Assembly (NCBI GenBank): GCA_031835245.2 | Contig: JAVKOQ020000024.1 | Location: forward strand, 124,001 to 188,000 | DNA from: Balamuthia mandrillaris | Taxonomy: Eukaryota | DNA: 64,000 nucleotides | Reading direction: 5' to 3' | Shown here: piece by piece, positions 8,710 through 63,445 of the stretch | Position numbering within the stretch: position 1 is the stretch's first letter | Layout of the letters: each line of letters begins with the position of its first letter | Notes under the pieces: generated by a model | Database searches by the model: none | Told to the model about the DNA's origin: nothing | The model's input: the letters and a program-made list of their open reading frames with translations, nothing else | Made by a program: the position numbers and the translations under genes

Positions 8710-8890
8710 TTTTTTGTTTTTTTGTCTTTCCTTGCTGCTTTCTTTTCTTTATTTTTTTATTTTTTTTGTTTTCACAAAGGTTTGTTGGTGTCGGGAATTG
8801 AACCGGCGGATTCAGTTAAAAATCCAAGTTGTTGCCATCACGATTCGAACCGGCGCAATTCAAATTGTAGTCATGACGACACGAAAATGG

Positions 8891-40277: not shown

Positions 40278-40611
40278 AAAAAAAAAAGCGAGAGGCATGG
40301 CCACACCGGGAGCACCGGGCTTACTCTCTGTACATATTACTATTTCTATGCACCATAAAAAAAACGTGTGAACCTTTGTCGATTCGAACCGACGGCCCAA
40401 TATTGGCGGACTTTTAGAGTGACGTGGCTCAGCTCCTTGGGGATCCATACAAAGGGGGCCACGTATCAGCCCACGTAAGCACACCAAAAAAAAAATGAGC
40501 GCCACGTCACGCGCCTCCTGAGCCGGCTGTTGCTGTCCATTTCTTTTCTCACCACACCGGAACTGCCACCACACAACAAACACACACAAAGCAAACATAC
40601 ATACACACGGA

Positions 40612-55452: not shown

Positions 55453-55809
55453 AAGGACTAGCCGAGCCAATGCAACCAAGCCTTAAACTTGGGGTCGAGC
55501 GGGCTCGGAGCATCCGGATCCACCAGCATGACGGTGTACAAAGCAGAGCTTCTTCCTCCCTCGGCTTCAGCAGCAGAAGAAGAAGCAAGGCGGAGGCGAG
55601 GTACCTGCCGCACTTGCTGTGGCCTCAGCTCCGTTCCTGGGCTGAGGGTGAGCTGTCCTTCCTCTCCATCATGAAAGGAAACCTGCACAAACAACTAGGT
55701 TATTTTCCTAGTGGCAGAGGTTGAAAAAAAACAAAAGAACCTTGAGCAGAGAGCGAGGGAGTTCAGAGACAAGGTCCGGCACGATGCGGTGGCTCGTTGC
55801 TTCTTCCAT
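54909..55809 (-). CDS. Phosphatidylethanolamine-binding protein (PEBP/RKIP family), 4 exons
   Basis: YTVMLVDPDAPS, WLHWL(A)VNVP, EYVGAAPGKDSG^KHRYTFLVYEQ and FYAEWD; splicing requires one GC-AG intron. Confidence 0.88.
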
Positions 55810-56070
55810 ACTGTACTATAGGGAGGGTTCCTTCTTTGCCGAAGCGATATTTTCACAATAAATATTGTATCCTTATGAAGAATGTAAATGCAGAGAAAAG
55901 AAAGAAGAGAGAGAGCTTTGTCTCTGACATACAGCAAATGGTTTTGTTTGGCGGAGGAGGCCTTCCTTGCCCCACAGGGTTCGAACCCGTTGCAACCGAA
56001 TGAATGAATATAAACGTTGGTGCAACAACACACCTCGCTCACGTGGGAAAAAAAAAAAAGAGGAAAGGAA

Positions 56071-56410
56071 TGGCCCTTCCCAGAGTCGAACTGGGACCTC
56101 CCACAAGCAAGCCGCACCCCAACTCCTCCGCACTTGTTTGCTTCTCTCTCCCTCCCGCGCATGGCGTTTACAGGCTGCCGTTAACAACAGCCCGAAAATG
56201 ACACAACAGGAAGAGAGGCAAGAAGCAAGCAATTTTGCAAAGAAAGGTCAGCCTTTTTGGATCATTATTGTGTTGCGAAAAGCGCACGCCCAAACCAGGT
56301 TCGGGCGCGCGCCTCTGGGCAATACGATGAGTCCAACAGATATGAATGAGCGACATCCAATATTCCTCATGATCCAATAGGGTGTGATGCCACGCTTACA
56401 CCAAAGGGCC
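56071..56410 (-). ncRNA. tRNA-framed structured RNA, copy A (340 nt; 277-nt insert in place of the anticodon arm)
   Basis: 5' GGCCCTT-TG-GTGTAA..GGCATCAC-ACCC; 3' GGG-AGGT-CCCAG-TTCGACT-CTGGG-AAGGGCC-A; perfect acceptor and T stems; T-run downstream. Confidence 0.7.
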
Positions 56411-56520
56411 GTGCTAACCATTACCACGGTACGGGTGTGTGTGCTCCCTTTGAACCACCGCCAGCCCACCCGAAAAACGAATTATGGGTCTTGCATGGTT
56501 TCTTTCCTGAAAATTGTTGC

Positions 56521-56703
56521 CTTCTCTTCTTCTTGTTCTTCTTCTTCTTCTTCTTCTTGTTCTTCTTCTTCTTCTTCCTGTTCTTCTTGTTCTTCTTCTT
56601 CTTCTTCTTCTCATCTATCAAAGGTGTTGTTCTTGTTCTTCTTGTTCTTCTTCTTCTTCTTCTTCTTCTTCTTCTTCTTCTTCTTCTTCTTCTCATCTAT
56701 CAA
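56521..56703. repeat. (TTC/TTG)n microsatellite spacer between the two tRNA-framed RNAs
   Basis: Two TTC blocks, each ending in CTCATCTATCAAA. Confidence 0.9.
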
Positions 56704-56722
56704 AAAAAAAAAGGCATTGGTT

Positions 56723-57118
56723 TGGCCCTTCCCAGAGTCGAACTGGGACCTCCCCCCCAAGCCACCCACGCCGTTTGTTGGCTCTCTCCTCCTTTGTTCG
56801 GGGCGTGGTATGCCACACAACCAAAGAAAGATACTGCCATGCGGGGTGACCCGTCCGAGTTTGTTTCCTCCCTCTCCCCTTCCAGCCTCTTTGTTTGCTT
56901 TTCATGGCAAGACCAAGGAAGCCGAAGCGAGGGGAGGGCGACCAAACCCGAAAGAATGGTGCCGGAGCGATTGCGCATTTGTTTCTCGTGACCTCCACCC
57001 AACCACTTAAGGCGTGACAGAGGCGACCTTTGCGTCGTTGACAAAGGAAAAAACCGCTACGGCTGCTCCCACCAACATGGGCGTGATACCTTTGTTTTTT
57101 TTTTTACACCAAAGGGCC
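56723..57118 (-). ncRNA. tRNA-framed structured RNA, copy B (396 nt; 324-nt insert, A-rich expanded D-loop)
   Basis: Same 15-nt 5' end and identical 32-nt 3' end as copy A; GGTATCACGCCC D-arm 3' side; T-run downstream. Confidence 0.7.
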
Positions 57119-62907: not shown

Positions 62908-63445
62908 ATGGAGTCTGCTGCTGCTGCCGCTTTTGATGTGGAGAAGACCAAGGGTTTCATCGAACAGGTGTGGGATGACAGCATCGTCCCCGCTTTGTGC
63001 GAGTACGTCAAGATCCCCAACCAATCCCCTCTCTTTGATCCCCAGTGGGCCACCAATGGTTACATGGACCAAGGTAAACGCCACGCCCACACACACACAC
63101 ACTGCCCTCACAAGCAACAAGCCTCACTTCTTTGTCTTAAAAAAAACTTTTTCGATTACTTTTTTATTTATATCTTATTATTTTATTTATTTTATCTGAT
63201 TCGAACCCCCTTTTTTTTTTGTGTGTGACACTAGCCATCCAACTGGAAGTGGACTGGGTGAAGAAGCAACAAGTGCCTGGCCTCGAAGTGAAGGTAACAC
63301 CCATCTCTGTTCTATGGACGTATTTTTGTTGGAAAGCTGAAATGCTGCTGCTGCTACCGCGCAGGTTATCACCGCCCCTGAGAGGACGCCCGTCATTGTT
63401 CTCACCGTGGAAGCCACCACTGAAAACAAAGAGTATTCCTCTCTT

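Follow-up and report, generated by a model that had tools for sequence, protein, structure and literature searches.

A tandem pair of tRNA-framed RNA genes with large hairpin inserts in Balamuthia mandrillaris

Two units on the minus strand of a Balamuthia mandrillaris contig, here called A and B, raise the question of what is made from a gene that begins and ends like a tRNA gene and carries a large, highly paired insert at the place of the anticodon arm. The units lie in a stretch of 64,000 nucleotides that was analyzed as a whole (the window). They share a prefix of exactly 15 nt and a suffix of exactly 32 nt, and on re-reading, their coordinates and letters in the initial annotation match the window sequence. 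No third copy of either word was found within the 64-kb window, with up to 3 mismatches allowed in the 15-mer and up to 6 in the 32-mer; each word occurs twice only. The pair sits between the stop codon (57405) of a carboxylesterase-family gene upstream on the same strand and an apparent start codon near 55809. The last exon of the carboxylesterase gives a 100% match over 94% of the query to an NCBI protein labelled Balamuthia mandrillaris. A GAA/CAA repeat of about 190 nt, partly duplicated, separates the two units (56510–56700). The features of the locus are collected in Table 1.

Table 1. Positions of the features of units A and B and their surroundings, numbered along the window
Feature	Position	Strand	Supporting observation
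Unit A, whole tRNA-framed RNA gene, 340 nt	56071..56410	-	Run X3 DNA contig identical over 56073-56400
A 5' tRNA half: acceptor 5' strand, D arm with A box (56403-56393) and GG, CCC	56380..56410	-	Gln-like D-arm pattern
A insert, 277 nt, between CCC and GGG: branched arm 1 (56377-56257) and long irregular arm 2 (56254-56109)	56103..56379	-	Folding; diverged forms expressed
A 3' tRNA half, 32 nt: GGG, 4-nt variable loop, T arm with B box (56092-56082), acceptor 3' strand, A73	56071..56102	-	No change listed in reads, at depth <=10
T12 run, predicted Pol III terminator of A	56048..56059	-	
tRNA D-arm relic abutting G1 of A upstream	56411..56424	-	14-mer within tRNAs at 74 of 80 viral loci listed
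Palindromic B box, 84 nt downstream of A	55978..55987	.	
Unit B, whole tRNA-framed RNA gene, 396 nt	56723..57118	-	
B 5' tRNA half; D loop expanded by an A run, GG retained	57079..57118	-	
B insert, 324 nt, between CCC and GGG: three predicted arms (57074-56957, 56952-56854, 56853-56758)	56755..57078	-	
Internal T6 of B, possible early terminator	57048..57053	-	
B 3' tRNA half, identical to that of A	56723..56754	-	
T11 run, predicted Pol III terminator of B	56702..56712	-	

The two units share a tRNA frame. Joined, the two halves give the 7-bp acceptor stem, discriminator A73, D arm (with GG), 5-bp T stem and A15:U48 pair that had been claimed, together with a UUCGACU loop, a CCC/GGG pairing and a variable loop of 4 nt. 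The further claim that the anticodon stem is reduced to 3 bp is right insofar as CCC/GGG is present in both, but in A a stem of 5 bp can be drawn in a shifted register. Position 3–70 of the acceptor is C3–G70, which bears out the statement that the alanine determinant G3–U70 is lacking. When a split frame of this kind (7-bp acceptor, U8, A14, 5-bp T arm and T run) was sought, the window yielded A and B alone and 20 shuffled windows yielded no match. The acceptor pairs, the discriminator, the T-stem pairs and the GG of the D loop are identical in A and B; the D loop and the insert differ. To judge from the letters, the frame is kept beyond what the promoter would need.

The computed fold is less uniform. 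The acceptor stem is firm in the ensemble (p mostly >0.9), the CCC/GGG stem has p ≤0.01, the D stem in its tRNA register p ≤0.05 and the T arm of A 0.4, and the tRNA-constrained fold lies above the free minimum by 5.7 (A) and 4.3 (B) kcal/mol. Tertiary contacts and modifications, which lie outside the folding program, would be needed to keep the D and CCC/GGG stems in place. For the inserts, the strong base pairing first claimed holds against shuffles and against GC-matched stretches of the window: the folding z against 100 shuffles is −6.0 for A and −2.9 for B, with no shuffle of the 100 equally stable, and as stable a fold is found in 0 of 130 (A) and 0 of 46 (B) GC-matched stretches, or in 2 and 5 of 314 unmatched ones. 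The inserts had also been called unrelated, which is correct for their sequence but not for their closing element, as both end in a long pyrimidine/purine hairpin, with CUUUCUUUG on the 5′ strand and GGCUUG at its base. The local alignment score of the two inserts, 40, is matched or exceeded in 33 of the 376 background stretches and in 8 of the 300 shuffles, and a MAFFT alignment of A with B is uninformative within the insert.

Both units have, by sequence, the feature set of a Pol III type 2 gene: an A box, a B box and a T run. In A the A box follows the consensus, in B its last G is missing, and the B box has one mismatch. The long T run claimed after each unit is there, as T12 behind an 11-nt trailer in A and T11 behind a 10-nt trailer in B. 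The boxes lie 300 nt apart in A and 356 nt apart in B, well above the usual yeast range; the accessible text of PMC11724288 gives a spacing of 31–93 bp for yeast tRNA genes. T runs also occur inside the units, one T6 in B and two T4 in A. The T6 had been flagged as a caveat, and it is a real concern because Pol III-like A/B-box transcripts of Dictyostelium stop at T5 and T6, according to the part of PMC5391098 that is accessible. B may be a truncated or silent member of the family.

B-box words occur elsewhere in the window as well. Four palindromic ones (GRTTCGAAYC) lie at 8842–8851, 40381–40390, 55978–55987 and 63198–63207, against 0.38 expected, and none of 100 shuffles reaches four, for a pattern that was picked after the words had been seen; they are possibly solo TFIIIC sites. 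On the minus strand at 8760–8860, two B-box-like words stand 47 nt apart, just past the apparent stop codon of an ABC-transporter-like frame.

The frame likely descends from a tRNA-Gln-type ancestor, because its D-arm pattern and the 14-mer directly upstream of A are found most often in Gln-called viral tRNAs; the comparison set consists of tRNA loci on viral contigs, not of the amoeba's own tRNAs. ARAGORN assigned 11 of the 20 viral-contig loci with the A/B D-arm pattern at tRNA spacing to Gln and 8 to other tRNAs, leaving 1 uncalled, so that the resemblance to tRNA-Gln proposed at the outset is upheld for the 5′ arm. Among the 80 loci listed, of at least 120, that contain the relic 14-mer, 36 are Gln, 15 are labelled Pyl, 23 are other or unassigned and 6 are uncalled. 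The 15 Pyl labels in this list (L024–L103) are amber (CUA) anticodons on a Gln-like body. A and B share with tRNA-Gln the D-arm pattern, A15:U48 and the 4-nt variable loop. They differ from it in having another acceptor, no anticodon loop and A73, in contrast to the U end of five eukaryote-type Gln genes with a GGUCU-like acceptor. A T-arm-like hairpin lies at 55970–55995, 84 nt downstream of A. Together with the upstream D-arm piece, this hairpin may mark an older tRNA gene that enclosed A, each representing one half of it, but on inspection by eye no pairing is seen between their acceptor strands.

Evidence for an RNA comes from one study, in the form of three raw, unstranded runs; a sample of 3–5% of each was used for alignment to A. 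One DNA contig set (run X3) was aligned to A in addition. Twelve DNA or untyped contig sets with the same species label contain 0.24–0.76 of the words; runs X13–X20 contain 0.07–0.08 and were left aside as giving no evidence. In the RNA runs, 123, 263 and 182 reads aligned to A. In all three, depth is 0 at 55924–56011 and at 56408–56515; it is highest within the insert and drops from 47/80/63 (56122–56143) to 9/10/2.5 (56078–56099) and then to less than 3 (56056–56077). As reads from DNA would be expected to continue through this half and to have loose ends past it, this collapse across the invariant 3′ half indicates a discrete RNA, and an A-type RNA that ends near 56071 is the better reading. 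When the reads were checked for a transcript joining the insert to the tRNA half, 116 of the 190 at position 56126 were found to extend past 56108, from the insert into the 3′ tRNA half, 95 of them as loose ends and 21 aligned through. The consensus of the 95 loose ends is the 3′ half followed by further letters, which we take to be adapter-like.

The 5′ side is thinly covered. Two reads of run X21 span the 5′ block, at about 56371–56406, and the X3 contig branches at the same place; together these observations imply that another copy has the first ~40 nt of A. Otherwise the 5′ half is uncovered, with depth 0 at 56342–56407 in X22 and X23. This could reflect loss of ends in the libraries, a modified base that halts reverse transcription, a 5′ block unlike that of A, or cleavage behind the 5′ half. 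In the three unstranded runs neither a pile-up of ends nor CCA is listed. The low depth on the 3′ half that A and B share suggests, weakly, that little room is left for B-type 3′ ends.

Copy A itself does not turn up among the RNA reads: all 190 reads differ from it at 56126 and 56129, and reads that are 99% alike to A number 6, 4 and 0 in the three runs. The proposal of an expressed family of tRNA-framed cargo RNAs stands in that relatives of A, apparently unspliced, are transcribed, but not for copy A. The A/B-type family is real and, through its A-type relatives, is expressed as a family. Each run contains two forms. In one, arm 2 is shortened, with 81 nt replaced by 26 (35/73/57 reads), and still closes as a hairpin (by eye); in the other, arm 2 is long but different (46/89/72 reads). 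The fixed indels and replacements, at 56107, 56269–70, 56299–300 and 56153–56233, fall in four cases out of four in the linker, a loop edge and two hairpin tips of the fold model. Three substitutions at paired sites are well covered; the one at 56129 keeps its pair, and those at 56126 and 56145 break theirs. The 5′ strand of arm 2 (56220–56257), which includes a 9-mer common to the A and B inserts, has no substitution; 39 of 260 reads show a change of one base within an A run. Its partner strand carries three substitutions. The invariance of this strand is partly ascertainment, as only matching reads align.

On the fold model, then, shape and shell look kept and sequence does not. That the frame is invariant while the cargo diverges had been offered as a sign of selection. 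The frame is indeed constant, but the insert turns over fast within one species label and two of the three paired substitutions break the predicted pair, and for these reasons selection on the cargo is weaker than the initial annotation implied. We rejected the idea that the X3 genome contains the read variants as paralogues beside A: 35 nt or more in common would be expected to break the X3 contig, which is unbroken over 56073–56400. The two forms are more likely alleles or copies in another strain. The A insert (56103–56379) differs strongly between the DNA of run X3 and the RNA runs, all under one species label, suggesting that it is a fast-evolving strain marker.

The explanation that we favor, with modest confidence, is that A and B are a small family of unspliced Pol III RNAs built on a tRNA-Gln-like shell, trimmed by RNase P and RNase Z, in which the hairpins do the work. 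Several others must be weighed against it. A and B could be tRNA genes with giant introns, in which case TSEN would excise the insert, a tRNA would be formed, the intron would persist as a stable RNA, linear or circular, and the reads would be precursors. ARAGORN with long introns allowed, a check suggested at the outset, does call A at the default threshold: a score of 102.5 for a tRNA-Ala(UGC) whose intron would be 265 nt long. The program makes no call in 10 shuffled windows, and B is not called at that threshold. Structured and circular tRNA introns of up to ~250 nt exist in metazoans, as the accessible text of PMC4536317 has it, a mature tRNA would be too short for these RNA libraries, and the 5′ half is poorly covered. 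The call on A is unspecific, however, since ARAGORN also accepts 515 of 1584 arbitrary excisions of A (and 5 of 1584 of B). It requires an intron at 31/32 and U37, goes without G3–U70, and names an anticodon whose third base is deleted in all 21 reads aligned through 56107. The acceptor, D and T arms of an intron-containing tRNA are all present (with an oversized D loop in B) and the conserved anticodon is missing: in each unit 144 excision registers were tried and no canonical anticodon arm (stem of at least 4 pairs, Y32, U33, R37) resulted, four registers of B have G32, and A and B imply different anticodons on identical acceptors. No exon–exon or back-splice joint is listed in the RNA reads, in which short tRNAs and a diverged 5′ side would be invisible. 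Eukaryotic tRNA introns are mostly canonical and 6–133 nt long in the accessible portion of PMC4090602. With long-intron tRNA genes and tricRNAs (Drosophila CR31905), A and B share a large structured insert between tRNA halves and possible small-RNA products; unlike them, they have no canonical anticodon after excision, keep the 3′ junction in those 116 of 190 reads and have an insert that exceeds the introns listed in the accessible text of PMC4536317. Splicing of A and B is disfavored, though a mature tRNA would escape these libraries, and we think the giant-intron explanation quite unlikely.

A selfish or neutral Pol III element would arise if a tRNA-Gln gene had been broken by an insertion (the scar of mobile DNA or an expanded hairpin) and then copied, its RNA being useless to the cell; the frame would then persist because transcription and copying depend on it, or through gene conversion from true tRNA genes. 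Fast turnover of the insert, broken pairs, the failure to find copy A in the RNA, the T6 and A-run D loop of B and the D-arm relic abutting A are all as this account would have them, and tRNA genes number in the hundreds in this genome (681, in the accessible text of 10.1101/2025.02.25.640156). But marks of a SINE, for which the locus was checked as the initial annotation had proposed, are absent: there is no target-site duplication at A or B (the longest shared flank word is 4 nt) and no A tail or other 3′ tail, and the B box stands at the 3′ end and not in a 5′ head. Two copies occur within the 64-kb window. The acceptor and T stems are fully intact in all forms seen, and the inserts fold far better than background, with no tRNA or terminal repeat found inside them. 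tRNA-derived SINEs and the A/B-box RNAs of Dictyostelium resemble A and B in their internal Pol III-type boxes, T-run ends and length of 100–400 nt; A and B differ from SINEs in having the body between the boxes and both acceptor strands intact, and the Dictyostelium loci, as far as the accessible text of PMC5391098 goes, have no tRNA similarity beyond the boxes. We regard the selfish or neutral account as unlikely. A very diverged form of a known RNP RNA (SRP, RNase P/MRP, telomerase, vault or Y) with acquired or mimicked tRNA ends is improbable. A size of 340–400 nt, paired ends and internal A and B boxes would suit it, and A may have a second downstream B box like one vault gene described in PMC10498592, whose accessible text gives vault and 7SL genes type 2-hybrid promoters. 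Rfam, however, names neither unit, in agreement with the initial view that they belong to no known family: the window gave 0 matches at gathering score and 13 chance matches at E ≤10, the best near the units having E 0.34, and miRNA matches were far below gathering score. Scans of the units with rough patterns found no SRP helix 8, RNase P/MRP P4, C box, Sm site or telomere template, the primer and probe published for the RNase P of B. mandrillaris do not match, and several diverged copies exist. Finally, we consider it most improbable that A and B encode a eukaryotic counterpart of tmRNA, a ribosome-rescue RNA with a reading frame inside it. The parallel with tmRNA (RF00023) drawn at the outset holds for layout and size, with tRNA-like ends around ~300 nt at the place of the anticodon arm in an RNA of ~350 nt, and ARAGORN makes a permuted-tmRNA call on A, with a second call there too, at 80% of its threshold only. 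It fails on the missing G3–U70, the presence of a D stem, the predicted Pol III-type gene and its eukaryotic host; default ARAGORN (0 genes) and Rfam give no tmRNA, and the 2-nt deletions and 55-nt shortening of the insert in expressed forms leave no conserved tag frame. As its sequence reads, the A/B RNA is not a tmRNA. ARAGORN relaxed to 90% made 16 calls in the window, of which 14 were unrelated to the units and, with scores of at most 95, were dismissed as noise. On the features that were compared, A and B fit neither tmRNA nor intron-containing tRNA, SINEs or the Rfam classes.

If A and B are instead unspliced RNAs in a tRNA-Gln-like shell, an ancestral tRNA-Gln-type gene would have had its anticodon loop replaced by 280–320 nt of hairpins. 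TFIIIC would bind the B box, which governs its recruitment in the accessible account of PMC11724288, with the A box 300–356 nt away, and Pol III would read the gene from these internal boxes and stop at T12 or T11. RNase P would cut at G1 and RNase Z at A73, reading the acceptor/T stack and the D/T elbow, and the CCA enzyme would add CCA after A73; PMC10424219 describes the acceptor/T stack as what RNase P recognizes and assigns completion of the 3′ end to RNase Z and the CCA enzyme. The product would be one stable piece of ~340 nt, trimmed like a pre-tRNA with its insert still joined. Its shell would confer nuclease resistance and export, as in the engineered tRNA scaffolds of PMC3753655, which, by the accessible text, retain the acceptor, D and T arms and carry cargo in place of the anticodon stem-loop; A and B differ from these in being natural, nuclear, eukaryotic and multi-copy. 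Other RNAs with a tRNA-like fold and no decoding role (mascRNA, the GUT15 tRNA-like element, YrlA and skipping-rope RNA) are short or otherwise connected, and none in the accessible descriptions has a 300-nt domain at the anticodon.

Such an RNA, which lacks a usable anticodon, could not decode. In the weakest step of the mechanism, which we nonetheless favor, its last long hairpin would be the working part and would serve Dicer or other proteins that bind double-stranded RNA. Taken together, the roles that we envisage for the cargo are somewhat probable; singly, a protein scaffold or decoy is an appreciable minority possibility, a small-RNA precursor slightly less than that, and a shell acting by itself as an uncharged tRNA mimic doubtful. 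Two Dicers and two Argonautes are known from the related Acanthamoeba, which also has miRNAs (PMC11014262, accessible text), and in flies a structured tRNA intron yields small RNAs, according to the same portion of PMC4536317 as above.

Beyond the window, two exact-pattern scans of metagenome contigs gave 0 matches, viral contigs gave 0 matches to the 3′ half and phage records gave no match. One viral-contig match to an insert 20-mer extends to 23 nt only and was set aside as chance, and three prokaryote-genome matches to the T arm were rejected as homologues, being without a matching acceptor strand. No homologue outside B. mandrillaris was found in the metagenome, viral, prokaryote and phage collections, which contain few amoeba genomes. 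Two Bacteroidota genomes (L001 and L002) have a comparable stretch at ~501–523, with a T arm at its end and tRNA genes nearby, on which neither ARAGORN nor Rfam makes a call; L002 also has a sub-threshold YrlA match at 273–336. The stretch is possibly a degenerate tRNA-like RNA. Published annotations of Balamuthia list 427–681 tRNAs and up to 100 other noncoding RNAs, and the accessible text of those genome papers (PMC10471605; 10.1101/2025.02.25.640156), whose annotation files could list the locus, does not mention an RNA of the A/B type. A literature search that covered mainly open-access papers found no description of one either, and the family is apparently undescribed.

Balamuthia infection is an amoebic disease that is rarely diagnosed and usually fatal, and the invariant 32-nt half of the expressed RNA could be a candidate diagnostic target for it. 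If the favored explanation holds, A and B would also offer a direct test of the maximum distance between A and B boxes and of what the tRNA enzymes read. To our knowledge, a tRNA shell with a large domain in the place of the anticodon is known in nature only from tmRNA. We suggest, tentatively and as something short of likely, that A and B represent a natural eukaryotic class of tRNA scaffold, in which RNase P, RNase Z and the CCA enzyme mature a shell whose anticodon has given way to a functional hairpin domain of 300 nt, and which serves to deliver regulatory hairpins or as a tRNA decoy. If this is true, the tRNA-scaffold solution would have arisen naturally in the nucleus of a eukaryote, and standard tRNA and Rfam annotation would miss an entire gene class.
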